Of a stretch of 64,000 nucleotides of DNA, positions 1 to 62,658 are shown one piece after another. The stretch's first letter is position 1, and every line of letters begins with the position of its first letter. The notes under the pieces are model-generated. The model was not told the DNA's origin and searched no databases. It saw nothing but the letters and a program-made list of their open reading frames with translations. This DNA is from an uncultured Verrucomicrobiota bacterium (GTDB taxonomy: Bacteria > Verrucomicrobiota > Verrucomicrobiia > Limisphaerales > CAZIFU01): positions 15,134 through 79,133 of the forward strand of contig CAZIFU010000287.1 of assembly GCA_964539075.1 (NCBI GenBank), given 5' to 3'. The position numbers and the translations under genes were made by a program.

Positions 1-1149
1 GCCGCCGCCGTTGCCAAGACCGGCATTCCGGTCTTCGCGCACAAAGGCGAATCACTCGAAGAATACTGGGACTTCACCCTCGCCGCGCTCACACATCCCG
101 GCAACAAAGGCCCGCAACTCATCGTGGACGATGGCGGCGACGCCACGCTCCTCATCCACAAAGGCTATGAACTGGAAAACGGTGACAACTGGATCAACAC
201 GCCCAGCGACAATCACGAAGTCGCCGTCATCAAGGCGTTGTTGAAAAAGGTCGCGAATGAACGCTCCGGCTTCTGGCACGAAGTCGTGAAGGATTGGAAA
301 GGTGTTTCCGAAGAAACCACCACCGGTGTGCATCGCCTCTACCAGATGCTGGAGCGGGGCAAACTTCTCGTGCCCGCCATCAACGTCAACGACTCCGTCA
401 CCAAGTCCAAGTTCGACAACCTCTACGGCTGCCGCGAATCGCTCGCCGACGGCATCAAACGCGCCACCGACGTGATGATCGCCGGCAAGGTCGCGGTCGT
501 CGCGGGCTACGGCGACGTCGGCAAGGGCTGCGCGCATTCGCTCCGCGGATTTGGCGCACGCGTCATCGTCACCGAGATTGACCCCATCAACGCGCTGCAA
601 GCCGCGATGGAAGGTTTTGAAGTCACCACGCTCGAAGACACGCTCGGCATCGGCGACATCTACGTGACGACCACCGGCAATTGCGACGTCATCACGCTCG
701 ATCACATCCTCAAGATGAAGGATCAGGCCATCGTTTGTAACATTGGCCACTTCGACAACGAGATCCAGGTGGAAAAGCTCAACACGCTGAAAGGCGTGAA
801 GAAAATCAACGTCAAGCCGCAGTACGACAAATACGCACTGCCCAACGGCCGCACGATTTATCTGCTCGCCGAAGGCCGCCTCGTGAACCTCGGCTGCGCC
901 ACCGGCCATCCGAGCTTCGTGATGAGCAACAGCTTCACGAACCAGTGCCTCGCGCAACTCGACCTCTGGGCCAAACGCGACACCAACAAGATCGGCGTCT
1001 ATCGTCTGCCCAAGAAGCTGGATGAAGAAGTCGCCCGCCTGCACTTGGATCGCATCGGCGTGAAGCTGACCAAGCTCACGAAGAAACAGGCCGATTACCT
1101 CGGCGTGCCGCCCGATGGCCCATACAAGCCGGAGCACTATCGGTATTGA
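1..1149 (+). CDS. ahcY: S-adenosyl-L-homocysteine hydrolase (5' end outside window)
   Basis: Frame open from base 1; motifs [50 protein letters not shown]-terminal KPEHYRY. Confidence 0.97.
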
Positions 1150-1157
1150 AAATCAGG

Positions 1158-1186
1158 TTGTTTGAATCCGCCGCGTGTGTCATTGT
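1158..1186 (+). promoter_or_regulatory. Putative sigma70 promoter of cassette 1
   Basis: TTGTTT-17 nt-CATTGT with extended TG, ATG 6 nt downstream at 1193. Confidence 0.45.
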
Positions 1187-1192
1187 CATCCC

Positions 1193-1366
1193 ATGAACAG
1201 AGCAATCGTCACCAAGATGTACGGCGCAAAAGAGATTGAAGCGGAAGTCCGCCAAATGCGCCGGACAGCGAAGCGGATACTCGCGTCGAAAAGCGCGACG
1301 CGACGATTCCTTGCGGCCACCGGGATGTACACGCTGAAAGGCGAATTGAAGCCTCAATTCCGCTGA
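1193..1366 (+). CDS. Small basic protein (57 aa), candidate antitoxin
   Basis: ORF with TGATG overlap onto the next gene; start chosen from promoter geometry. Confidence 0.6.
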   Translation: MNRAIVTKMYGAKEIEAEVRQMRRTAKRILASKSATRRFLAATGMYTLKGELKPQFR

Positions 1367-1935
1367 TGCCTTCGCAATCCCTCGCCATCGGCTACCATGG
1401 GTGCGACCGCAGGTTGGTCGAAAAAGTGGTGGCGGGAGCGGCGGAACTCAAGCCGAGTCAAAACGCCTGGGACTGGTTGGGCCACGGCATCTATTTCTGG
1501 GAGGATAGTCGGGCGCGAGCCTTGCGTTGGGCGGAAACCGAGGCCCAACGGCACGGCACCAAAATCAAAACTCCCGCCGTGCTTGGCGCGGTCATCCAAC
1601 TCGGCCATTGCCTCAACCTCACCGAAACCGAGTCGCTCTCCCTCGTCAAAGGCGCGCATGAATTTTATACCAGCGCGTGCGCTTCGACGGGTTCCCCCGC
1701 AGCGACCAATCGCGGCCCGGAACTGCGCGCGCGATTTCTCGACTGCGCGGTGGTCGAAACCCTTCATCAACTTCGCACGAAAGAAAGAAAACAACCGTTC
1801 GACACCGTGCGCGGCTTTTTCTTGGAAGGGCGTGCTTTGTATCCCGGCGCGGGCTTTCGCGAGTTGGATCACATTCAAATCTGCGTACGCTCGCCCAAGC
1901 AGATCATCGGCTACTTTCTGCCGCGAAACGGTTGA
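1366..1935 (+). CDS. Hypothetical protein, probable ADP-ribosyltransferase-like (DUF3990-like) fold, candidate toxin
   Basis: YHG, GxGIYFW, RAxxWA and HIQICV motifs spaced like the H-Y-E/Q triad of ART enzymes; family assignment is inference. Confidence 0.65.
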
Positions 1936-1944
1936 ACGCATTGG

Positions 1945-2053
1945 GCACCTCGACCGCATTGGCGTGAAGCTGACCAGGCTCACGAAGAAACAAGCCGACT
2001 ACCTCGGCGTGCCGCCCGAAGGACCTTACAAGTCGGAGCACTACCGGTATTGA
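1945..2053 (+). pseudogene. Duplicated 3' end of ahcY (109 bp)
   Basis: Aligns to 1041-1149 with 12 mismatches, 9 synonymous; encodes [35 protein letters not shown]. Confidence 0.95.
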
Positions 2054-38984: not shown

Positions 38985-39630
38985 CCCTCACTCCGGCCCC
39001 ACTGCCATTGAATTGAGCCCAAGACACGCTAAAGCGTGGACACCGAACGCGTGGAAACCCGTTTGGTGTGCACGCTTTAGCGTGTCCCGTTTCCAAGGAC
39101 CGTTCGCTAATTCAATGGCGGTGCACCCCGGCCCTCCCGAAGGGAGAGAATCCAAGGACGCGCGATCGCGCATAGTGCCCATGACCCGGCTGAGGGACTC
39201 GCCGGCGCGCCAGCGTCTTGGAGTGCGGCAGTCCTCTGCCGCTGTCGCAAGCCGCGGGAGTCCGAAAGCGCCAGAGGACTGGCGCAGTCCAAGACCTTGC
39301 GGAGTGAGGACGGTTCATGGGTAGCCTCCACTTCCAACTTTGGACGCGCATCGGGGCCATGAACTGGTTAGCGCTTCCGTTGTCGCGCCAGCGTCTTGGA
39401 GTGCGCCAGTCCTCTGGCGCTTTCGACCACCCACGACTTTCAAAGCGCCAGAGGACTGGCGCAGTCCAAAACCTTGCGGAGTGAGGACGGTTCATGGGTA
39501 GCCTCCACGATCCGAACATCGCGTACTGGAACCATCAACCCTGGAGCGCGGCATTTATGCCGCTTCACGAATCGTGCAGTATGGGACGTCGAAGCGGCAT
39601 AAATGCCACGCTCCAAAGGCGGTTCACGGG
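38985..39630. repeat. Modular nested repeat cluster
   Basis: CCCTCAC element split by a 14-bp-IR element (39001-39122) carrying a REP pair; three consecutive CCATGAAC...GGTTCA(T/C)GGG shells carrying hairpins. Confidence 0.8.
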
Positions 39631-41997: not shown

Positions 41998-42152
41998 AAT
42001 GGTGACGACGACACTAACATTCCGGCGCGCCGTTCGGCCAGCCCATTCCGCAGGGGGAACATGGGCTGGCCATTTCACCTTGGGAGCAGCCTCGATCTTC
42101 CTGAAACCGAAAGCCGGTGATGGTCGGTAAAATCGCCCACCCCATGAAACTC

Positions 42153-42304
42153 GTAGCCGCCGACGTCAGTCGGCGCACTGCCTTCCCGTCCGAGAACATT
42201 TGGCGCGGACTGACGTCCGCGGCTACCCGGCACCGTAGCCGCCGACGTGAGTCGGCGCTCATCGTTCCTGGCATAAGAGTGCGCCGACTGACGTCGGCGG
42301 CTAC
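42153..42304. repeat. Four GTAG REPs in two inverted pairs
   Basis: GTAGCCGC(C/G)GACGT(C/G)AGTC(G/C)GCGC at 42153, 42203, 42235, 42281. Confidence 0.9.
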
Positions 42305-43199: not shown

Positions 43200-43344
43200 A
43201 TCACTGCATACTGACGAGGAGCGAATCCAAGCCATAACGCGTAAGTTCTAAATGGCGTTTTGTTGACTTCATGGTTGGATGGTTTTTCTGACAGCGTCCG
43301 GCACCTTTACCATCAGCCACTGAGCGCGCCCTTTCGCCCCATCC

Positions 43345-43501
43345 GTAGCCGCCGACGTCAGTCGGCGCACTTCCTTCCCGCCGGAGAAACCTTGGCGCGG
43401 ACTGACGTCCGCGGCTACCGCGCGCCGTAGCCGCCGACGTTAGTCGGCGCAGTCTTTCCCCCTCACCCGAAAAATCAGCGCGGACTCACGTCCGCGGCTA
43501 C
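43345..43501. repeat. Four GTAG REPs in two inverted pairs
   Basis: Copies at 43345, 43395, 43427, 43478. Confidence 0.9.
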
Positions 43502-43506
43502 GAGGG

Positions 43507-44133
43507 CTATTCCATCTCGCGCGGCGGGAGGATCCGTTGCTCGATACCCGGTTCGCGCACCGACAAGTAGTGCTTCCAAAACCACGGCCAGTAATCCGGC
43601 TCGAAGGGATTCAATCGCGGATACCCCGGCACGACCGCACCCAGATACGGCCAGTCCGGCGGCGCCTTCACCAGCCCGCCCTTGAACGGATTGAGCAGCA
43701 CGTAATCCGCGCAGGCGAGGCTGAACGCGCGCCGTTGCCGCTCCTCCGCCGTGAGCACGTGATCGTGCGGCTGATGCTGGAACTTCGCCGGCTTGAGGAA
43801 CGGACCGAGTTGCGCGCGGAGAAACTTCATCCCGTTGCGCTGGTCGGCCTGCTTGCGGATGCCCATCCAGACAAGATGAACGTGGTTGGGCATGAGGCAA
43901 TAGGCCGGGCAGAGCAATCCCTCGCGGGCGGCGGCATGAAGCATCATCTCGCGAAAGGCGGCGTGGAAGGAATGGTCCAGCCAGCCCGATTGGCGATGCG
44001 CCACGGGCAGGGTCCAGAAGACCACGGCGTCGGCCTGGTAAAACTCGCGCTTCAACCGCGGGAGATAGTGGGAGAACGAGGAGCGTGGCTTGCGCTCGTC
44101 AGGGTTTGGGGAACCACCGGATGGATCGGGCAT
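43507..44133 (-). mobile_element. REP-associated tyrosine transposase (RAYT, Y1/HUH family)
   Basis: AYCLMPNHVHL HUH motif, DYVLLNP...GL catalytic Tyr, DWPY; flanked on both sides by GTAG REPs. Confidence 0.88.
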
Positions 44134-44146
44134 GGGCGGGAGATTA

Positions 44147-44202
44147 GCGCGGACTTACGTCCGCGGCTACGCCGCGTCGTAGCCGCCGACGTGAGTCGGC
44201 GC
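44147..44202. repeat. Two GTAG REPs upstream of the RAYT
   Basis: Copies at 44147-44170 and 44179-44202. Confidence 0.88.
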
Positions 44203-50115: not shown

Positions 50116-51237
50116 TTACCCGATCTTCTGCCGGAAGCGCAGGACGCACAGGGCGAAGAGCGCGCCGCCCATCCCCGACAGGACCACCAGGTGTTGCCAG
50201 AAATCGTGCAGGCTCGCCCCGCGCAGGATGATGGCCCGCGCCAGTTCGATGAAGTACGTGGTCGGCAGGCACGCGCCCAGCGCCCAGAAAATCCAGGGCA
50301 TCGTCTCGCGCGGAAAGATGAACCCGGAGAAGAAGACCGACGGCATGATGAAAATCATGCTCATTTGCAGCGCCTGCATCTGGTTTTGCGCGCGGGTCGA
50401 GAGCAGCAGCCCCAGGCTCAACAGTGAAAAGATATACAACACCGTCGCCGCCGCCAGCGCCGTCAGGCTGCCGGCAATCGGCACGTCGAACAGCCAGTGC
50501 ATGATGGCGTAGAGGCCCGAGGACATCACGATGCCGATGCACAGGTAGGGCACGAGCTTGCCGAGCATCAGGCCCCACCGGGAAAGCGGGCTGACGAGCA
50601 GTTGCTCCAGGGTGCCGCGCTCGCGCTCGCGCACCAGCGACATCGCCGTGGCGAACGTCGTCGCGATTTGCAGCACCACGCCGATGACGCCCGGCACGAA
50701 AAAGTTCGGGCTGCGCATGGCCGGGTTGTAGAGAATTTGCGGTCGCACTTCGACGGGCAGTTCGCGCAGGCCGGTTTGGGTCTGGAAGTGCAGCAGCGAT
50801 TCGCGGAAGGCCACGCTGATGGAGGTGTTCAACGCCGAGCCGGCGATGGTGGAACTGGAGCCGTCAATAAGCACCTGAAGGTGCGCGGTGCGGCCGGCGT
50901 GGAGGTTGCGCGTGAAGTCGGGCGGGATTTGCAGGCCCACGTAGGCCTTGCCGCGGCGGATGACGGCGGCCAGTTCGTCCACGCTTTGCACCTCGCCCAC
51001 CACGCGGAAGGTCTGTGTGTTGACGAAGCGCTCGATGATCTGCCGGCTCTCGGTGGTGCGGTCCTCGTTGAGAACGACCATCGCCATGTGCTTCACGTCG
51101 TTGTCCAGCGCGTAACCGAACGCGACCATCTCGATCAGCGGCGGGAAGAACATGAAGAACAGCGTCAGCGGATCGCGCAGGACCACGCGGAATTCCTTGT
51201 AGAGAATGGCGGAGAAGCCGCGGAAGGGGGTTTTCAT
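50116..51237 (-). CDS. ABC-2 type transporter permease (YbhR/YbhS-like)
   Basis: LYNPAMRSPNFFVPG, RERERGTLEQLLVSP, FSGFIFP. Confidence 0.92.
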   Translation of the reverse strand: MKTPFRGFSAILYKEFRVVLRDPLTLFFMFFPPLIEMVAFGYALDNDVKHMAMVVLNEDRTTESRQIIERFVNTQTFRVVGEVQSVDELAAVIRRGKAYVGLQIPPDFTRNLHAGRTAHLQVLIDGSSSTIAGSALNTSISVAFRESLLHFQTQTGLRELPVEVRPQILYNPAMRSPNFFVPGVIGVVLQIATTFATAMSLVRERERGTLEQLLVSPLSRWGLMLGKLVPYLCIGIVMSSGLYAIMHWLFDVPIAGSLTALAAATVLYIFSLLSLGLLLSTRAQNQMQALQMSMIFIMPSVFFSGFIFPRETMPWIFWALGACLPTTYFIELARAIILRGASLHDFWQHLVVLSGMGGALFALCVLRFRQKIG

Positions 51238-51265: not shown

Positions 51266-51415
51266 AAAATGACGAATGACGAATGACGAATGACGAAAGA
51301 ATGACGAAGCTCGAAGCCCCAAGACGCGTGCGCAAATCGTTCGCGTTGGCATCGGCTGTTTCGACATTCGTCATTTGGAATTCCTTGGTCATTAGGATTT
51401 GGTCATTCGTCATTG
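51266..51415. repeat. (GAATGAC)n heptamer hairpin
   Basis: Four to five GAATGAC units and an inverted GTCATT(C/T) arm; supplies the ATPase stop codon. Confidence 0.8.
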
Positions 51416-52365
51416 CCCCGAGCGCCGTTGATGCGATCACTTGTCAAAGCGACGAAAACATCCTCCAGCGACGGCGCAATCGGCCGGATGTCCGCGCGCG
51501 CGATGCCCACCTTCGTCAGTTCCTCGCGCATGAGTTGCTCGGACATGTCCTGCTCGATCAGCAGGTGCATGGATTGGCCGAAGACCGTCGCGGCCTTCAC
51601 CCCCGGCAGCCGCCGCAACGACTGCAAGCCCACCGTCACGTGCTCGCACGTCACGTCCACCCGGCGTGTGCCGGGCGGGTTGACGACGCGGAGTTGCTTG
51701 AGCGCATCCGGCTCGCCGCACACCACCAGTTTGGAGAAGGAGATGTAGCCCACGTGCGAACAGCGTTCCGCCTCGTCCATGTAATGCGTCGTGATGAACA
51801 GCGTGATCCCCTTGCTGGAAAACTCGAAGAGCAAATCCCATAACTCGCGCCGCGCCACCGGATCAATGCCCGCCGTCGGCTCGTCGAGAAACAGCACGCT
51901 CGGCTTGTGTACCAACGAGCAGGCCATCGCGAGCCGTTGCCGCCAACCGCCGGAGAGCAGGCCGGCGCGGCGAGCGAGGTAGGGTTCGAGGTGCGTGAGC
52001 GTGATAAGTTCGTCGCGCCGCTGCGCCAGCGCCGCGCCGCGCAGCCCGTAGAGCCGCGAGTAAAACGTGATGTTCTCGTGCGCCGTCAATTCGTCGTAGA
52101 GCGAGAACTTCTGCGACATGTAACCGATGAGCGACTTGATGTGCTCCGTCTGCCGCGCCACGTCGTAGCCGGCGATGGTCGCGCGCCCCTCGGACGGTTC
52201 CAGCAGCCCGCACAACATGCGGATGACCGTGGACTTGCCCGAGCCGTTGGGACCGAGGAAGCCGAAGATGGACCCTTTGGCGACGCTGAACGACACGCCG
52301 TCCACGGCGGTGAAATGTCCAAACCGCTTCGTCAGGTTTTCACATTCGATCATCGCGTCGGGCAT
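51403..52365 (-). CDS. ABC transporter ATP-binding protein
   Basis: [33 protein letters not shown]. Confidence 0.93.
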   Translation of the reverse strand: MPDAMIECENLTKRFGHFTAVDGVSFSVAKGSIFGFLGPNGSGKSTVIRMLCGLLEPSEGRATIAGYDVARQTEHIKSLIGYMSQKFSLYDELTAHENITFYSRLYGLRGAALAQRRDELITLTHLEPYLARRAGLLSGGWRQRLAMACSLVHKPSVLFLDEPTAGIDPVARRELWDLLFEFSSKGITLFITTHYMDEAERCSHVGYISFSKLVVCGEPDALKQLRVVNPPGTRRVDVTCEHVTVGLQSLRRLPGVKAATVFGQSMHLLIEQDMSEQLMREELTKVGIARADIRPIAPSLEDVFVALTSDRINGARGNDE

Positions 52366-52373
52366 GGTGAAGA

Positions 52374-52991
52374 TCACTCGGTTGTTACCTCGAACCCCTC
52401 AAAGCGCTGTTCCCAAACTTGCATCAACGGTCGCCAGTCATTCCCGTCGCCAGCCCTCAGTGCGGCGAAATAATTGGACTCGCCTGCGGTCTCCGTGGGA
52501 ACAAGGTCAACCGGCGGAAGTTCCAACCGGCGGAGCAATTCACGAAGAAAGAGACGGGTGACACGACCATTGAAATCGTTGAACGGATGGATCGAGAGCA
52601 GGCGCCCCTCGGCAAACGCGAGCATTTCCAGGAGCAGGTCATCCATCTTCCTGCTGGCATTTTGGAGACGCACACGAAGGTTCTCGCTGTAGTCACGCAT
52701 GAGGATGGGCACGCGAAACGGCGGTGGTGGGTTGTGCTCGCCGACCGTCACCTCGGCGTCGCGCCACCGACCCGCCCATTCGGGCACCAGATCAGCGGCG
52801 ATTTCAGAATGAAAACGCAGGATGAGTTCGCCACCGGGGTCTTGGGCAGCAAAAGCGCCTGAAGCAATGGCGGTTTCCACGCGGAGCACACGTTCGGCCA
52901 GCAGCGGCGCCAACTGCGAATAACTCAGGAGGCCGCTTGTGGTTTGAATGAAGCGGGTCGCTCCGCCTGGCGGTGTAGTTTCTCCAGCCAT
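52374..52991 (-). CDS. Fic-domain protein (class I toxin candidate)
   Basis: HPFNDFNGRVTR, a variant of HPFx(D/E)GNGRxxR. Confidence 0.88.
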   Translation of the reverse strand: MAGETTPPGGATRFIQTTSGLLSYSQLAPLLAERVLRVETAIASGAFAAQDPGGELILRFHSEIAADLVPEWAGRWRDAEVTVGEHNPPPPFRVPILMRDYSENLRVRLQNASRKMDDLLLEMLAFAEGRLLSIHPFNDFNGRVTRLFLRELLRRLELPPVDLVPTETAGESNYFAALRAGDGNDWRPLMQVWEQRFEGFEVTTE

Positions 52992-53122
52992 GATTGGTCA
53001 ACGGCCTCCTTCTCGAACGCCATGGACAGGGCCACCTGGCGCGGAATCCGCCGCCAACAAATCTCCTGCCGGGCTTCAGCATTGAGCCGCCGCCAGCGTT
53101 GGATGGTTTCAGTCCATTTCAT
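52925..53122 (-). CDS. Small protein, candidate FicA-like antitoxin
   Basis: Directly upstream of and overlapping fic; SMAFEK resembles the (S/T)xxxE(G/N) inhibitory motif. Confidence 0.6.
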   Translation of the reverse strand: MKWTETIQRWRRLNAEARQEICWRRIPRQVALSMAFEKEAVDQSWLEKLHRQAERPASFKPQAAS

Positions 53123-53128
53123 GCCGGA

Positions 53129-53157
53129 ACATTACTGCCGATGCGGTAGCCAGACAA
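53129..53157 (-). promoter_or_regulatory. Putative sigma70 promoter of the Fic cassette
   Basis: TTGTCT-17 nt-TAATGT, ATG 6 nt downstream. Confidence 0.6.
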
Positions 53158-53159
53158 GA

Positions 53160-53324
53160 CTACAATCCGCATAACATGCGGATGACTGTGGACTTGCCCG
53201 AGCCATTGGGACCGAGGAAGCCGAAGATGGACCCCTTGGCCACGCTGAACGATACGCCATCCACAGCGGTGAAATGCCCGAACCGCTTGGTCAGGTTTTC
53301 GCAGTGGATCATCGCGTCGGGCAT
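53160..53324 (-). pseudogene. Duplicated, truncated 5' end of the ABC ATPase gene
   Basis: 54 codons match 52204-52365 with 16 mismatches, 14 synonymous, then TAG. Confidence 0.95.
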
Positions 53325-53332
53325 GAGGCAGC

Positions 53333-54791
53333 CTATTCGGGTAGGCGCAGTTTCCAGAGAAACTCGTCCGTTGCGATGTAAACGGAATTCTTGGCAACCA
53401 CAGGCGAATGGTAAAGCCCCAGAGGCAACTGAAAGCGGCCAAGACATTTCTTTTTCCTGCCGGCCGCGAACACAATCAAGTCACCGTCATCAGTTCCGAC
53501 CAGAACCTTGCCGTCTGCAAGGCAGGGCGAGCCATAGTAACAACCGCGCGCGCCGTCAGCGAGTCGGCTGTGCCAGATTTCTTCCCCGGTCTTTTCATCC
53601 AGGGCAAATAAAACGGCCTGCCAGCCCAAGACATAAACGATTCCGTCGGCCACGGTGGCCGAGCCGTAAGTGCTGCCGAACTCTGGATGTTGAAATGTCC
53701 AGCGCACGGCTTTCGCAGTAGCGTCGCCACGATGCCCGAGGGCAATGGCGTAAAGCGGCGCGTTGGTTTGAGGTTGCTCAAAGTCATTGTTCAGACCGAC
53801 ATAGATCGTATCGCGATGGACAGTCGGAGTTCCTACGAAGAAATTTTTCCGGTTTTCGGGATACAAACCGGATTCCACTGCTCGCCAGTCGTTCGCCGCA
53901 GGTTCCGTGCAATTGGCCTTCCAAATCTCCCGTCCAGTCTTCGGTTCAAATCCATACAACCATCCATCCCCCCCCGGGAAAAATCACCTGGTCCACGCCG
54001 TTCACTCGCGCAACGGCGGGCGAAGACCACTGGCCATACATGATTGCCTGGCCCGGCGCGTGACTGCTCCAAACCACTTTGCCGCTCTCCTTGTCCACCG
54101 CCAGAAATGACGGCGCGGAACTCGGTTCGCCTGACGGACGGCAACCTTCGCCGGTAACGCAAAACACCAAGTTGCCCGGCACCATGGGCGAGCAAATCGG
54201 ATTGCCTACGTCGCCCGCATCCCGCTTGAAGACGCCGAGCTCTCGAACCATGTCGAGTTTCCAGATGAAGTCGGCGTCGGTCGGTCCGGTGAGGTCCTCC
54301 GACGTGAAAGGGCTGTTGTTCTTGCCGTCGCGGAAACCCTCCATGTCCACGCAGACCAACTCGCCACGATTGCTCACATACAACGCGCGCCCGCCTTCCA
54401 CCCACGGGCGCGAATTGATGAACCCCAGCATGTCGTTGACACGTTCTGGAAGTCTGGGATGGGCTGACTGCCACAGAATCTCGCCCGTCTGGCTGTTGAA
54501 GCACTTCAGCGCACCACCCTCTTCCGCGATCTTGTGAGTGCGCGGATCCTCTCTTTGAAAACTCGTGCCAACCAGAATCTTTTCGCGCGAGAGCGCTACT
54601 GCGCCGGAGTTCCAGCCAATCTTCGCGCGCCAGATCACATACTTGCCGCCATCCTTGGTGCAATCCCAAACCGGAGCTTTTTCCACCTCGGGGTCTATTT
54701 GAGCGCGAAGAGCGTTCGCAAGGGACAGCATCAGGACGAACGTCAGCGCGAGGCAACGAAACGTTCTTGATCGGCAGTTCTTTCGTTTCAT
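53333..54791 (-). pseudogene. PQQ-binding-like (BamB-type) beta-propeller protein split by a +1 frameshift in a G8 tract
   Basis: ORFs 53946-54791 and 53333-53959 join as FPGGDGWLYGFEPKTG if the G run at 53968-53975 is G7. Confidence 0.8.
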
Positions 54792-54806: not shown

Positions 54807-54831
54807 TTACTTTGCCACGATCGGGAACGTC
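54807..54831 (-). repeat. Short diverged copy of the hlyD 3' end
   Basis: g-acg-ttc-ccg-atc-gtg-gca-aag-taa (TFPIVAK*) versus 55539-55563 g-acg-ttt-ccc-ggc-ttg-acg-aag-tga (TFPGLTK*); 17/25 nt identical. Confidence 0.45.
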
Positions 54832-55180
54832 ACGATTCCGGCGGAGGATTTGCGGCCAGATAAGCCTCCAAGCGCGCGATCAAGGGTGGAAGGTCTCGTT
54901 GCACGGTGTCCCACACGACATCCAGGTCCACATCGTCGTAGTCGTGGATGAGAATGTTCCGCATCGCGGTGATCAGCTTCCAGGGGATCTCGGGGAAAGT
55001 TTTGAGGGCTTCGGGAGACAGTCGGCGGGCGGCTTCGCCGATGATCTCAAACTTGCGGTTCACCGCTTCATACTTTTCTTCGTTTGCCTTGAAATCCTCG
55101 CGGGAGACGCCGCTGGTGAATCGCCGGATGGCTTTGGCAGCTTCGAGAATATCCTCCAGATAAGCATTATCCTTCGGCAT
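54830..55180 (-). CDS. hepT: HEPN (DUF86) RNase toxin
   Basis: EIIGEAA, IPWKLITAMRNILIHDY (RX4H), DVVWDTV. Confidence 0.92.
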   Translation of the reverse strand: MPKDNAYLEDILEAAKAIRRFTSGVSREDFKANEEKYEAVNRKFEIIGEAARRLSPEALKTFPEIPWKLITAMRNILIHDYDDVDLDVVWDTVQRDLPPLIARLEAYLAANPPPES

Positions 55181-55475
55181 AAATCGGCGTTGCCGTGGAA
55201 AGGATGGAATGTTTACGGTAGCGATTGCGGCTGCGCTCAATGGCGCGGCGGCTCACCAAATCCACCGGACGACCGAACAACTCTGCTAACTTTTCCTGCA
55301 TATCCGCCCAATCGAGCAGCGTCGGACGCGCATCTGAACGAAGCGTGGCCAGCAGATCAACGTCGCTGTCACCGCGAAAATCATCGCGCAGCGCCGAGCC
55401 GAACAATTCGAGCCGGGCAATGCCGCGTTCCCGGCAGAATCGTCCAAGCTTCTCGCGATTGAAGTTCAGCTTCAT
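55167..55475 (-). CDS. mntA: Minimal nucleotidyltransferase antitoxin
   Basis: LFGSALRDDFRGDSDVDLL, GRPVDLV. Confidence 0.92.
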   Translation of the reverse strand: MKLNFNREKLGRFCRERGIARLELFGSALRDDFRGDSDVDLLATLRSDARPTLLDWADMQEKLAELFGRPVDLVSRRAIERSRNRYRKHSILSTATPIYAEG

Positions 55476-55538: not shown

Positions 55539-56501
55539 TCACTTCGTCAAGCCGGGAAACGTCGCCTCCACCGACATGCCGGCGCGCAGTTGGCCGTCGG
55601 GATTCTCCAGCCGCAGCTTCACGCCGAAGACCTGCTTGATGCGCTCGTCGGCGGTCTGCACGTTGCGCGGGGTGAACTCGGCGGCGCGGCCAATCTGCTC
55701 GACCGCGCCCTTGAACTCCCTGTCGGGGAACGCGTCGGCGCGAGCCGTTACGGCGTCCCCAAGTTGGATGTGTCCCAGCCACGGTTGCGGCACGAAGACG
55801 CGCACCCAAAGATGATTGGTCAACAGCAGCGTGGCCACCTCGCGGTTCGGCGCGAGCACGTCGCCCGGCTTCACGCTCAACACTTCGAGCACGCAATTGG
55901 TCGGCGCCGCGATGGTCATCTCGCGGAGCTGCGCGTCGGTCTCGGCCAGTTGCGCGCGCGCCTGAGCCAGCCGCTCCGGCCGCGTGCCCGCCAGCAGCAG
56001 GTCGTAACGCGCCTTGGCGGCGGCGGCGCTTTTCTCCCGCGTGGTCGCCTGGCTCACCGCGCGGTCGCGCTCGGTTTCAGAAACCGTCTTGTCGCGGAAC
56101 AATTCCTCAGCGCGCTTGCGCTCGGTGCGGGCGAGGTCCAGTTCGGCCAGTTGCGCCTCCCACTCGGCCTGGACGGCGGCGATTTCCTCCTTGCGCGGGC
56201 CGGCTTCCCACTCGGCGAGCATCGCGGCCATTTGTTCGCGGCGCGCGCGGAGTTCGGCGGCGTCGAGCTGGACGATGGGCTGGCCGGTTTGCAGTGCGTC
56301 GCCTTCCTGCGCAAAAATTTTCTCCACGCGCCCGCCGTAGCGCGAGGCGACGCGGGCCTCGTCGGTTTCAATCGTGCCGGAGACGCCCGCCCGGTCCGCG
56401 GGGAAAGCCGCCCGGTCGCAGGCCGCCAGCAAAAGCAGCGGCAGGAGCGCGGCGCCGAGTGTGATGCCAGAATTGATGTTCACCCGGCGCGAACATAGCA
56501 A
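55539..56501 (-). CDS. HlyD-family secretion adaptor (YbhG-like lipoprotein)
   Basis: LLAAC lipobox, VSGTIE, VASRYGGRV, AEFTPRNVQT, LRAGMSV. Confidence 0.9.
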   Translation of the reverse strand: MLCSRRVNINSGITLGAALLPLLLLAACDRAAFPADRAGVSGTIETDEARVASRYGGRVEKIFAQEGDALQTGQPIVQLDAAELRARREQMAAMLAEWEAGPRKEEIAAVQAEWEAQLAELDLARTERKRAEELFRDKTVSETERDRAVSQATTREKSAAAAKARYDLLLAGTRPERLAQARAQLAETDAQLREMTIAAPTNCVLEVLSVKPGDVLAPNREVATLLLTNHLWVRVFVPQPWLGHIQLGDAVTARADAFPDREFKGAVEQIGRAAEFTPRNVQTADERIKQVFGVKLRLENPDGQLRAGMSVEATFPGLTK

Positions 56502-59598: not shown

Positions 59599-61815
59599 TC
59601 AACGCACGGCGCGTTTGCGTTTGCCGCCGCGCGGGTAGCGGACTTTGACAGGGGCGGCGGGCGACTGCATTCCCAGTGCACCGCGTTTGAGTTCGTTGAT
59701 CTGATCGCGGAGCAGCGCGGCTTTTTCGAACTCCAGGTTGTTGGCGGCTTCGAGCATTTCGGCTTCGAGTTCGCGGAGGGTCTCGGTCACGTCGAAGTTG
59801 CCGCCGGCTTCGTTGATCACGGCCGCGGCGCGGGCGGAGCCTTCGCGATACACCGCCAGGCTGTCCTCGACGGCGCGGCTGACGCTGCGCGGGGTGATGT
59901 GGTGCTCGCGGTTGTAGGCGAGCTGCTTCTCGCGGCGGTAGTTGGAAATGGCCAGAAACTTTTGAATGCTCTGCGTCATCACGTCGGCGTAAAGGATCAC
60001 TTCACCGTTCAGATGGCGTGCGGCGCGGCCGGCGGTCTGAATCAAACTCGTCTCGCTCCGGAGAAAACCTTCCTTGTCAGCGTCGAGAATGGCGACGAGC
60101 GACACCTCCGGCAGATCGAGGCCTTCGCGCAGCAGGTTGATGCCGACGAGCACGTCGAACTCGCCCTTGCGGAGCCCGCGCAGAATCTCGACACGCTCGA
60201 TGGCGTCAATCTCGCTGTGCAGGTAACGGACGTTGATGCCGATGTCGCGGAGGTAATCGGTCAGTTCCTCGGCGGTGCGCTTGGTCAGCGTGGTGACGAG
60301 CACGCGCTCTTTTTGCTCGACCCGTTTGCGCGCCTCGTTGATGAGGTCATCAATCTGGCCCTTGAGCGGTTTGACGGTGATGACCGGGTCCACCAGGCCG
60401 GTGGGGCGGACGACCTGTTCGACGACGCCGGAATTTCCACTGCCCAGGCCCTCGCTTTGCGGGACCACCCTCTCCCCACCCGATGGGGAGAGGGACGGGG
60501 TGAGGGGTGCTCTTGTTTCTTCCGTAGCAGCCGACGTGAGGAGGCTCTGATCAATGTCCTTTGAAGAATGAGCCTCCTCACGTCGGCTGCTACGAACTTG
60601 AAGGGCACTCTCCCCTGCCCATTGAATTTCCCGACCGCCTGGCGTGGCGCTGACATAAATGGTCTGGTTCTGGTGGCCTTGAAACTCGCCGAAGTTCAGG
60701 GGGCGATTGTCGAGCGCGCTGGGGAGCCGGAAACCGTGCTCGACGAGGACGGTCTTGCGCGAGCGGTCGCCTTCGTACATCCCGCCGATCTGCGGGACGG
60801 TGGCGTGCGACTCGTCAATCACAAGCAGGAAATCCGGCGGGAAAAATTCCATCAAGGTGCAGGGCCGCGAACCGGCCGGCCGGCCGGTGATGTGGCGCGA
60901 ATAATTTTCAATGCCGGAACAAAAGCCCATCTCCTCCATCATCTCCAGGTCGTACTCGGTGCGCATCTTGACGCGCTGGGCTTCAAGCAGTTTGCCGTGC
61001 TTTTCGAACCACGCGATGCGGTCGCCCAGTTCCTCGCGGATGGTCAGGACGGCGCGCTTTGTTTTTTCAGCGGGCGTGACGAATTGTTTGCCGGGGAAAA
61101 CGGTGACCACTTCCAGGCCCTCGATTTTGTCACCGGTGAGCGGCTCGAAGCGGGTCAGGCGCTCCACCCGGTCGCCGAAAAACTCGATGCGCAACGCGTC
61201 TTCCACGTAGGCGGGGCACAGTTCGACGGTGTCGCCGCGCACGCGGAACTGGCCGCGGGTGAACTCGATGTCGTTGCGGTTGTATTGCAGGTCCACCAAA
61301 CGGAGGAGGAACTGGTCGCGGGTCAGTTCCTGGCCGGCGCGCAAGTGGACGAGCATCGTCTCGTAATCCTCCCGGCTGCCGATGCCATAGATGCACGAGA
61401 CGCTGGCGACCACGATCACGTCGCGTCGCGCGAAGAGCGAACTCATCGTCGAGAGCCGCATCCGCTCGATCTCCTCGTTCACGCTGGAATCCTTCTCGAT
61501 GAAGGTGTCGGTGCGCGGGATGTAGGCTTCGGGCTGGTAATAATCGAAATAACTCACGAAATACTCGACGGCGTTGCGCGGAAAAAAACTTTTGAATTCG
61601 GCGTAAAGCTGCGCCGCGAGCGTCTTGTTGTGCGAGATGACGAGCGTGGGCTTGTTTACGTTTTGGATGGCATTGGCGATGGTGAAGGTCTTGCCGGAGC
61701 CGGTGACGCCGAGCAGCACCTGATGCTTCGCGCCGGACAACAGCCCCTCGGTCAGCTTCGCAATCGCTTGCGGCTGGTCACCGGCGGGCGCGTATGGGGC
61801 GACGAGTTCGAACAT
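59599..61815 (-). CDS. uvrB: Excinuclease ABC subunit B with ~60-aa repeat-derived insert
   Basis: [50 protein letters not shown]-terminal UVR domain. Confidence 0.97.
60459..60593. repeat. In-frame GTAG REP hairpin plus CCCTCACCCC element inside uvrB
   Basis: Perfect 23-bp arms at 60524-60546 and 60571-60593; second element at about 60461-60507. Confidence 0.9.
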
Positions 61816-61870
61816 TTCTGATCGCGCGGGTTTTCCTCGGGCAAGCGCAAAGAGACGATTGCACGGCGAT

Positions 61871-62158
61871 TCAAATAGCCTTGGCCAGTTGGCGGCGCTT
61901 CATGCCCAGGCGAAAAAGGGTTTGCAGCAGCAGGTCAATGGATACCGTGGCATCGGCCGCCTCCATCTTGGCAACACGGGATTGACTGGTTTTCAAGCGC
62001 GCCGCCAAGGCCGTCTGCGTGAGTCCCTGTTCCTGTCGCAAAGCGCGCACCTGACGGGCGAGCGCCCGTCGCATCTCGATGAATTCCAGGTCGGCGTCGG
62101 ACAGGTCTAGGAAGTCCTGCACCGAGCCTTCCACCCAACCGTTTTTCAACTTTTTCAT
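61871..62158 (-). CDS. XRE/HTH antitoxin
   Basis: [24 protein letters not shown]; overlaps toxin by 4 nt. Confidence 0.9.
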
Positions 62159-62487
62159 GGCTGGCTTGCTTCGTAGAGTTTCACCCGCCGCCGGCAGTTT
62201 TGGATTACTGCGTCCGGCGTTTTTTCAGTCTTCTTCTCAAACACGTCCAGAACCACGACGGCGTCCGCTTCGAGGCGGTAAATCACCCGCCACGCTTTGT
62301 TCCGGTCGTTCACGCGCAACTCGTGGCAGCGCGGACCGATGATCGGCATCGGGCGGGAGTGGGGCAGACCCAGGTTCTCGCCGTCCTGCAAGTCTCGCAA
62401 GAGCATCCCGATTTCCCGCCGGGCTTCCACGCTCATCGGCGGGGTTTTCACCTCGCCGTGCAGCCAGCGCAGGGGCTTGCCGTTCAT
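62155..62487 (-). CDS. RelE-like (Gp49/DUF891-type) toxin
   Basis: LPHSRPMPIIGPRCHELRV, WRVIYR, FEKKTEKTP. Confidence 0.9.
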   Translation of the reverse strand: MNGKPLRWLHGEVKTPPMSVEARREIGMLLRDLQDGENLGLPHSRPMPIIGPRCHELRVNDRNKAWRVIYRLEADAVVVLDVFEKKTEKTPDAVIQNCRRRVKLYEASQP

Positions 62488-62497
62488 CGTGCGATGG

Positions 62498-62526
62498 AAG
62501 CTATGTCAGAACAGGTATAGTGTCAA
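62498..62526 (-). promoter_or_regulatory. Putative sigma70 promoter of the RelE-XRE cassette
   Basis: TTGACA-17 nt-TAGCTT, 10 nt before ATG. Confidence 0.65.
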
Positions 62527-62533
62527 CCGCGTG

Positions 62534-62658
62534 CCCCGTGATACCGACCAGCTTCTGGTGCTTCGCGCCGGACAACAGCCCGTCGGTCCGGTTCGCAACT
62601 CCGAAAGCTTTCGAGGCCGGTCACCGGCGGGTTTGAACGATGCGGACAACTCAAACCT
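62534..62658 (-). pseudogene. Degenerate duplicate of the uvrB 5' end
   Basis: RFELSASFKPAGD...[+8 nt]...[22 protein letters not shown] versus Uvr[14 protein letters not shown]...[22 protein letters not shown]; exact 23-nt match tgcttcgcgccggacaacagccc. Confidence 0.9.

Follow-up and report, generated by a model that had tools for sequence, protein, structure and literature searches.

A 64,000-nucleotide (nt) stretch of the genome of an uncultured Verrucomicrobiota bacterium of the order Limisphaerales (assembly GCA_964539075.1, contig CAZIFU010000287.1, positions 15,134 to 79,133), hereafter the window or WIN, encodes a small toxin-antitoxin (TA) cassette comprised of a ficA-like and a fic gene, lodged between two copies of the 5' end of an ATP-binding cassette (ABC) transporter ATPase gene. 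As judged by comparison with the closest relatives among loci taken from public assemblies (denoted by L-numbers), the two copies are reciprocal chimeras of native and foreign functional sequence. This reciprocal chimerism points to a single homologous crossover within the repeat, somewhere from codon 16 to codon 24. It leads to the proposal, to which we give somewhat better than even credence, that FicA-Fic is a mobile TA, possibly phage-defense, cassette linked to a copy of the ATPase 5' end, and that its occupied and empty states would interconvert by homologous crossover.

The duplicated ATPase 5' end and the polarity of its copies

The core of the locus, read in the direction of transcription, is made up of the following features:

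53163..53340, minus strand: upstream repeat copy, including about 16 nt of weakly similar leader (self-comparison, codon comparison)
53324..53160, minus strand: open reading frame (ORF) of the ATPase 5' fragment, 54 codons followed by TAG (ORF list)
53123..53159, minus strand: left end of the cassette, a promoter-like region (conservation across contexts)
52925..53122, minus strand: ficA-like gene, 65 amino acids (aa) (conserved ORF)
52374..52991, minus strand: fic, 205 aa (Pfam PF02661)
52204..52381, minus strand: downstream repeat copy, the 5' end of the working ATPase (codon comparison)
51403..52365, minus strand: ABC-2 type transporter ATPase, 320 aa (Pfam ABC_tran, 1.8e-31)

Codons 1-54 of the ATPase are thus present twice. 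Compared codon by codon, the copies show 16 mismatches over 162 nt, of which 14 are single synonymous changes; the other two both fall in codon 7 (GAA/CAC), resulting in an E/H difference (E7H), and 14 of the 15 differing codons are accordingly synonymous. A repeat search of the window recovers the pair as 52208-52381 against 53167-53340 with 88% identity. The ATG of the fragment lies 8 nt past the TAG stop of the preceding PQQ-like ORF (stop 53333-53335), and that of the intact ATPase 8 nt past the TGA of fic (52374-52376). An earlier sequence-only reading of this DNA had described the duplication, its mismatches, the two 8-nt spacers and the TAG that ends the fragment, and was exact in each of these particulars on codon comparison and coordinates.

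Both the metagenomic source and the tendency of repeats that are about 90% alike to confuse assemblers could favor an assembly artifact or a chimeric bin of two strains. However, in unitigs of two independent freshwater-sediment runs, 52288-53210 and 52288-53295 are reproduced without a single difference and at an even depth of about 13x, and both junctions are spanned; hence, the arrangement is not a misassembly. The same architecture is also present in at least five other independent assemblies. Misassembly, which the sequence-only reading had named as what could undo the case, is thereby ruled out, and we assign this explanation a practically negligible probability. The reading had also allowed for the fragment to stem from a full second ATPase paralog. 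Apart from the two copies, the window matches the ATPase only in a 52-nt Walker A stretch (67-71% identity), and with no second paralog in the window and a single copy in the relatives this source too was rejected. A diversity-generating retroelement was considered in view of the roughly 90% repeat, and rejected: the mismatches are third-position changes of all kinds, the repeat lies at the 5' end of the gene, and the Pfam scan results for the window genes contain no reverse transcriptase.

The decisive comparison comes from the closest relatives. In sequence searches, the nearest ATPase orthologs are far closer to the WIN ATPase than any Fic-bearing one, and the five that were inspected (L102, L100, L101, L109 and L110; 88-94% identical) all lack the Fic cassette. 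L102 (94%) shows HlyD, an unrelated 223-aa gene and the ATPase in succession; L109 (90%) has a TIR-domain gene in the slot between HlyD and the ATPase; L101 and L110 (both 89%) have other neighbor genes. These four have a single ATPase 5' end each. L100 (91%), which is syntenic with the window, displays an 83-aa ATPase fragment, a different two-gene cassette, coding for a 104-aa protein and a 175-aa nucleotidyltransferase-like protein, and then the intact ATPase. Its repeat measures 194 nt, its junction is unlike that of the Fic cassette, and its fragment is truly decaying (D22H, P39S in the Walker A motif, and M50V). The ATPase tree places WIN next to the cassette-free L102 as its sister, in a clade that is itself cassette-free.

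The 16 differences between the WIN copies were polarized against these five orthologs. The outgroup state is found in the fragment at nt positions 7, 9, 12, 24 and 36 (codons 7-16; at position 9 in 3 of the 5 outgroups), and in the working copy at positions 60, 72, 108, 126 (again 3 of 5), 141 and 147 (codons 24-53); position 78 is the one exception and position 33 is ambiguous. Thus, 11 of the 12 polarizable sites fit a reciprocal chimera, and with the first outgroup set the distribution was significant by Fisher's exact test (p = 0.005). The fragment is native-like in codons 1-16 and foreign-like in codons 24-54, and the working copy is the reverse. Within its codons 7-16 the working copy holds 6 derived sites in a space of 30 nt, and three of its derived 5' states (GAATGT) are the states of the Fic-bearing loci L018, L011 and L014. 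Between codons 24 and 51 the fragment holds five derived states, every one of them synonymous (P = 0.001-0.004 under neutral decay). A breakpoint in the middle of the repeat points neither to a site-specific event at the repeat edge nor to an in-situ duplication followed by decay.

A phylogeny of both copies against relatives had been suggested by the sequence-only reading as a check; the site comparison with relatives yields the reciprocal chimeras, and the ATPase tree the sister position of L102. The comparison bears out in part, and trims, the claim that the cassette supplies the working 5' end: cassette-linked sequence does make up some of it, but only approximately the first 16-23 codons of the working gene appear foreign and the remainder native. 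Nor was a whole replacement 5' end simply brought in, as an e14-type insertion would do, which should make either copy entirely native or entirely foreign; both WIN copies are chimeric, with the foreign 3' two thirds lying in the upstream fragment.

The FicA-Fic cassette and its distribution at the same ATPase

The cassette is about 0.8 kb long and consists of about 55-64 nt of promoter-like DNA, the ficA-like gene and fic, with the stop codon of fic forming the right end of the conserved unit. Fic scores 45.5 bits against PF02661 (cut-off 24; E = 1.4e-11). Its best match among PDB sequences is FICD (4e-13), and an AlphaFold2 model of moderate confidence (mean predicted local distance difference test score 66) matches FICD, EcFicT, VbhT and Bep8 with template modeling scores of 0.55-0.68 and a Foldseek probability of 1.00. 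It further matches the PADLOC candidate defense family PDC-S04 (2.4e-22), and also SoFic. Searches returned 891 homologs at E <= 1e-5; among the 120 that were listed, nearly all have a length of 205 aa and an identity of 71-87%, and most of those with a named source belong to Verrucomicrobiota, a phylum in which the cassette turns up in many different settings.

The active-site motif, HPFNDFNGRVTR, departs from the canonical HxFx(D/E)GNGRxxR: as the sequence-only reading had pointed out, WIN has HPFNDFNGR with F in place of the first G. The family form HPF(T/N)DFNGR, with the same replacement, is shared by 116 of the 120 listed homologs, and the H, D, N, G and both R residues are kept; the F is therefore a trait of a large subfamily and no local lesion. 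This defines a large Fic subfamily with F at the anion-hole position of the motif and a small partner of its own.

That partner, the ficA-like ORF, overlaps the start of fic by 67 nt and is conserved in about 60 loci. It features the motif SM(A/S)FE(R/K/G/Q)E, in which SM(A/S)FE is invariant and is followed by R, K, Q or G, to be compared with (S/T)xxxE(G/N) in class I antitoxins; the protein has no match in Pfam, NCBIfam, PADLOC or the PDB sequences. Class I Fic TA modules, such as VbhT-VbhA, EcFicT-EcFicA and Fic-1-AntF, are described in general terms in PMC3667792 and PMC5033356. The WIN pair resembles them in having a Fic-fold protein of about 200 aa after a small upstream gene with an S-x-x-x-E helix motif. 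However, it differs from them in several respects: HPF(T/N)DFNGR stands instead of a GNGR-type motif, the antitoxin motif ends in R/K and not in G/N, the closest solved relative by sequence is FICD and not FicT or VbhT, and the two ORFs overlap extensively in WIN. In L025 (5845-6595) FicA and Fic are even joined in frame as a single 250-aa ORF; here a two-gene, class I-like module has turned naturally into a single-chain, class II-like Fic.

Upstream of ficA, the stretch TTGTCT(17 nt)TAATGT begins 2 nt past the TAG of the fragment, with a -35 hexamer TTGTCT at 53157-53152 and a -10 hexamer AGTAAT/TAATGT at 53136-53129. The sequence-only reading placed a promoter here. The position of the hexamers is correct and the DNA is conserved, the 55-64 nt being kept in every cassette context with -35/-10-like hexamers at fixed positions, and other lineages have better ones, e.g. 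TTTGCT..TATATT; in a sigma-70 consensus scan, in contrast, the weaker hexamers of WIN went uncalled. A junction motif, GGATTGnnGTCTTGTCTGG, is common to the lineages with the cassette at the ATPase, and L016, in which the cassette lies behind acs, has it minus the ATPase-derived bases. Cassette and transporter share one orientation, 8 nt separate fic from the ATPase, and no terminator turned up. It is plausible, as the sequence-only reading proposed, that the transporter now lies behind a TA promoter, itself predicted from conservation. Fic is a putative toxin, may have a role in defense, and would be co-transcribed with the ATPase.

The cassette is, on compositional and comparative grounds, foreign to the WIN locus. 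Its G+C content at third codon positions (GC3) is 0.64-0.67 (0.64 for fic), versus 0.86-0.90 for the transporter genes, and it is absent from the five closest relatives. The same disparity holds in 9 of the 9 loci examined, with a cassette GC3 of 0.64-0.74 lying below the 0.75-0.87 of the neighboring host gene.

The arrangement of fragment, ficA, fic, ATPase and permease recurs with other flanking genes in L001/L017, L011, L015 and L018, and in L014 minus most of the fragment, of which only the last 17 nt are left with the cassette kept. All these Fic-plus-ATPase lineages have one junction, in which CGCATGTTGTGCGG is directly followed by ATTGCGGTCTTGTCTGG. A fragment is 89-95% identical to its own neighboring ATPase and 75-89% identical to copies at other loci. 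Codons 48-54, next to the junction, have decayed in the fragment of L001 and are frameshifted in that of L015. Pooled across loci, the repeat copies differ by 32 synonymous versus 9 nonsynonymous codons. WIN, L001, L011, L015 and L018 still have a fragment ORF that begins with a start codon; its product is 54, 71 or 74 aa long depending on the lineage and differs at the C-terminus. The Fic tree is star-like, with identities of 80-86%, a divergence of the same order as that of the ATPases; it correlates only weakly with the ATPase tree (rho 0.40, p 0.07), and the Fic of L016 nests among the ATPase-context Fic genes.

Gene-end duplicates around other cassettes and the neighborhood of the locus

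The sequence-only reading treated this case as a single instance. Further instances in the window itself (at ahcY and uvrB) and at L100, L016, L018 and L058 show that it recurs. Those in the window are:

1041..2053, plus strand: second instance, at the 3' end of ahcY (repeat search, codon comparison)
61700..62650, minus strand: third instance, at the 5' end of uvrB (repeat search, Pfam)

At ahcY, the intact 3' end (1041-1149) is followed by a cassette and then by a duplicate of the last 36 codons at 1945-2053 (109 nt, 89%), both copies ending at the same TGA; the cassette encodes a 63-aa ORF (1175..1366) and a 189-aa ORF (1366..1935), the latter with a weak match to PADLOC PD-T4-9_A (2.9e-7). 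At uvrB, a Gp49/HigB-like gene (62487..62155) and a helix-turn-helix (HTH) antitoxin-like gene (62158..61871) lie upstream of the intact 5' end, with a decayed duplicate of codons 10-40 at about 62535-62650, which has suffered nonsynonymous changes as well as an indel. The uvrB case thus has the look of an older example of this architecture.

The most elaborate example is an array of three cassettes behind acs in Pedosphaera sp. Baikal-deep-G230 (L016; SIBJ01000029.1, 320-6895). The first cassette is of the VapC type, another has a gene for a 180-aa nucleotidyltransferase-like protein, and another combines a 572-aa gene with FicA-Fic. They are separated by four copies of the acs 3' end inclusive of the gene's own, the duplicates being 131, 131 and 276 nt long, with the 276-nt one closing the array. 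The two 131-nt copies start at the same nucleotide, all copies end at the stop codon, and by sequence they fall into two types, copies 1-2 versus copies 3-4. L018 shows YefM-YoeB flanked by 77-nt copies of the 3' end of HlyD, and also a small gene in reverse orientation that is bracketed by 85-nt copies of a Bro-N gene end; in L058 a Fic cassette lies between copies of a segment of a cupin gene. Common rules emerge from these cases: the cassette is usually co-oriented with its target, the intact gene abuts the cassette at a start or stop codon, and 0-10 nt separate the toxin's stop codon from the repeat that follows.

None of the roughly 35 window ORFs covered by Pfam scans, which were confined to the window and not exhaustive, is a recombinase, and the Fic cassette itself holds only ficA and fic. 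Folding of the repeats of acs, ahcY and the ATPase, each strand in turn, revealed no hairpin potential (z-scores -0.06 to -1.67), leaving attC-like hairpins in the repeats unsupported. Likewise, on reading the junctions of seven independent cases, no shared recombination core was seen.

Two sets of loci offer related observations. In L020, L051, L053, L060, L064 and L086 the same N-terminal fragment of another gene (..KFPSIRIEG..ILDKIE..) lies directly past the fic stop, and in L053 it is followed by no long ORF; this may be a gene-end fragment that travels with the Fic cassette. In L033 (4983-7312), an actinobacterial metagenome-assembled genome of Ilumatobacteraceae, a distant 414-aa Fic gene with the canonical motif lies between 209-nt direct repeats (86%), which are segments of an HTH gene. 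The architecture may thus extend beyond Verrucomicrobiota.

The remaining genes of the transporter locus are:

55539..56501, minus strand: HlyD-family membrane-fusion gene, first of the transporter operon (annotation of the window ORF)
54830..55475, minus strand: MNT/HepT toxin-antitoxin pair, in the same slot as the PQQ-like gene (Pfam)
53333..54791, minus strand: PQQ_2/BamB-like beta-propeller gene, split in two ORFs (Pfam)
50116..51237, minus strand: ABC-2 permease, 373 aa (annotation of the window ORF)

The whole region thus reads, on the minus strand, HlyD, MNT/HepT, PQQ_2, ATPase fragment, ficA-like, fic, ATPase and permease. The intact ATPase matches the drrA model TIGR01188 with 4.6e-79, under that model's cut-off. 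The MNT/HepT pair (GC3 0.63-0.65) sits between HlyD and the PQQ-like gene, and neither the 3' end of HlyD nor the 5' end of the PQQ-like gene was detected as a flanking duplicate. The two PQQ_2/BamB-like ORFs (54791..53946 and 53959..53333; GC3 0.60-0.71) overlap, and the gene is split at a run of 8 C near 53965, through either a sequencing error or a frameshift. Its slot, from HlyD to the ATPase, is variable, with unrelated genes occupying it in relatives. Between ATPase and permease, a 165-nt spacer (51268-51414) displays tandem GAATGAC heptamers set against their own inverted complement, in arms of 48 nt that are 73% complementary; in relatives the length of this spacer ranges from overlap to 410 nt.

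Elsewhere in the window, a perfect hairpin, GTAGCAGCCGACGTGAGGAGGCTC...GAGCCTCCTCACGTCGGCTGCTAC, occurs in frame within uvrB (about 60480-60560, minus strand; peptide ..SLLTSAAT..). It is related to repeats resembling repetitive extragenic palindromes (REP) at 42152-42258, 43344-43450 and 44096-44202, which adjoin a 208-aa ORF (44133..43507) with no Pfam match. As candidates for gene-end duplicates these repeats were rejected, since they are REP-like hairpin elements and thus a different phenomenon. A non-coding stretch at 39167-39508 contains two pairs of direct repeats at a spacing of about 177 nt (81 nt, 77%; 67 nt, 99%).

A proposed crossover within the repeat and its alternatives

In the mechanism that we favor, the FicA-Fic cassette would travel joined to a copy of the ABC ATPase 5' end, and one RecA-type homologous crossover within the approximately 170 nt of homology would interconvert the occupied and the empty locus. 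This might happen by Campbell-type integration and excision of a circle made up of repeat and cassette, or through uptake of linear donor DNA with both repeat copies serving as arms. Integration would leave an upstream fragment with a native 5' and a foreign 3' part, and a working gene with a foreign 5' end and a native rest. The ATPase would stay intact in the process, so that a co-oriented cassette could be read within the operon. Recombination between the repeats could in turn remove the cassette scarlessly. The junction-proximal edge of the repeat would always move as non-coding DNA and decay, and the decay of codons 48-54 in L001 and L015 and the remnant in L014 are expected on that account; the synonymous bias of the rest would reflect repeated refreshing from functional genes. 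The dependence on RecA, the form of the intermediate and the direction of the event in the WIN lineage are likewise predictions from sequence comparison.

The product has a familiar counterpart. In Campbell-type integration, a non-replicating circle bearing a gene fragment enters by a single crossover, and this is a standard means of gene disruption and tagging in the laboratory. Its outcome is an insert between direct repeats of the homology, each a reciprocal chimera, which a second crossover can reverse; WIN has the flanking direct repeats, with the target intact on one side, as well as the reciprocal chimerism. We know of no description of this as a natural lifestyle of chromosomal TA cassettes, and a natural circle or transfer route is here only proposed. 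A literature search by word matching, of limited scope and hence weak as evidence, found no earlier description of TA cassettes flanked by gene-end duplicates. Another parallel is offered by polymorphic toxin loci, in which a piece of the main gene stands ahead of orphan toxin/immunity cassettes (PMC3482391). There as here, a copy of the conserved segment of the upstream gene precedes the cassette and provides homology for recombination; in those loci, what recombination exchanges is the C-terminal toxin tip of the main gene, whereas the repeat here ends at the same stop codon and leaves the host protein unchanged.

Several points weigh against the crossover mechanism or limit it. It does not account for how the cassette was first joined to a gene end, why repeat boundaries coincide with a start or stop codon, why the toxin stop abuts the next repeat within 0-10 nt, or by what vehicle and mode of DNA uptake these organisms would effect the transfer. 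No donor with the unique synonymous states of the fragment was found, and the contigs of the two runs contain no excised allele, circle or excision joint. The polarity of the ahcY pair against three cassette-free relatives gives a mixed pattern. The star-like Fic tree, weakly congruent with the ATPase tree, makes a long vertical residence possible. Finally, the direction is ambiguous, as excision from a WIN-like ancestor in the same interval would give the same chimeric pattern. A gain, however, takes 1 event and loss at least 2 with the same 24-nt breakpoint interval, and hence we favor a gain of the cassette in the WIN lineage, with a long residence possible. In either direction, the occupied and empty alleles interconvert by recombination in the repeat.

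Loss is central to the account we had initially favored, namely a single ancient insertion inherited with the transporter operon, its copies homogenized by gene conversion and the cassette then lost from the cassette-free relatives. The one junction in all Fic-bearing ATPase lineages, the clustering of copies by locus, the decaying repeat edges and the matching divergence of Fic and ATPase all suit it, and recombination between repeats would make loss easy and yield the observed single-copy chimera. We downgraded it on account of the cassette-free state of the closest relatives, which demands the two or more independent losses in the same short interval. It also leaves the 10% nearly all-synonymous divergence between the copies unexplained, unless the fragment is effectively under selection (the pooled 32:9). 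Moreover, the cassette's GC3 has not moved toward the host value in any lineage, and the Fic of the acs context nests among those of the ATPase. We now consider this account unlikely, albeit with appreciable weight. An in-situ duplication at insertion, by staggered-break fill-in or replication template switching, would be the simplest source of an insert flanked by a target duplication, and would work at any target gene. With copies identical at birth, neutral decay should have made about half of the differences nonsynonymous, against the 14 of 15 synonymous codons in WIN. The working copy should also be native, against the cluster of 6 derived sites in its codons 7-16; together with the reciprocal chimerism these render such an origin very improbable. 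That the fragment is kept for the sake of its 54-74-aa product, or of its translation, for example to regulate the promoter 2 nt downstream, could explain the retained start-bearing ORFs and the low nonsynonymous divergence. Yet the length and C-terminus of the product vary, L015 is frameshifted, L014 has lost nearly the whole fragment and kept the cassette, and a lone Walker A segment would be unlikely to fold; we give this explanation hardly any credence.

Site-specific integration by a trans-acting recombinase, either integron-like or of the e14 type and with the repeat as attachment (att) site, finds favor in the co-oriented array of L016, where two of the 131-nt repeats start at the same nucleotide, and in boundaries that are precise at stop and start codons. 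It also has a precedent: in Escherichia coli, e14 or phage 21 is inserted in icd such that intact icd runs into the element and an icdC fragment remains on the far side, and excision recombines both copies into a chimeric functional gene (PMC13626634). The likeness to WIN extends to an insert with the intact gene end on one side and, on the other, a displaced duplicate of about 100-170 nt with mostly synonymous differences (PMC13626634). Yet the prophage e14 is 15 kb long, encodes an integrase of its own and has a short att core where the duplicate ends, whereas the WIN insert is about 0.8 kb with a TA pair only, neither the cassettes nor the scanned window genes yielded a recombinase, and the exchange maps to the middle of the repeat and not to its edge. 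The repeats, furthermore, come from unrelated genes, range from 77 to 276 nt, and show neither a common junction core nor hairpin potential. We regard a site-specific mechanism as improbable.

The resemblance of L016 to an integron array nonetheless goes beyond co-orientation. Its four acs 3'-end copies separate three small, compact cassettes that are stacked in one direction and, as in integrons, often code for TA systems with their own promoters; integron arrays have repeats of about 60-140 nt between cassettes, and in L016 likewise the stop of an ORF abuts the next repeat. In contrast to integrons, neither IntI, in the Pfam scans of window genes, nor attI turned up, the repeats derive from the coding ends of housekeeping genes and do not fold as hairpins, and the first repeat of each array belongs to a functional gene. 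This leads to a broader suggestion, which we offer tentatively and with less than even confidence: Verrucomicrobiota may possess recombinase-free, integron-like systems of TA and defense cassettes, with the ends of housekeeping genes (ABC ATPase, acs, ahcY, uvrB and HlyD) as portable homology. In such systems host recombination would insert, excise, exchange and stack cassettes at a target gene of any genome, regardless of synteny, and keep the gene intact, and the gene-end fragments would be the attachment sites of a selfish element rather than debris.

TA cassettes mostly lack a mobility gene and how they move is unclear, so gene-end handles would matter. If the crossover mechanism is correct, TA and defense cassettes would invade conserved genes by host recombination alone and exit scarlessly, and such scarless gain and loss would explain their patchy distribution. 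Short pseudogene fragments beside TA pairs would then constitute a searchable signature of recent gain, as well as a tool to map recombination breakpoints in uncultured bacteria. Operons, too, would be rewired without loss of function, as would apply here to a transporter placed behind a predicted TA promoter.

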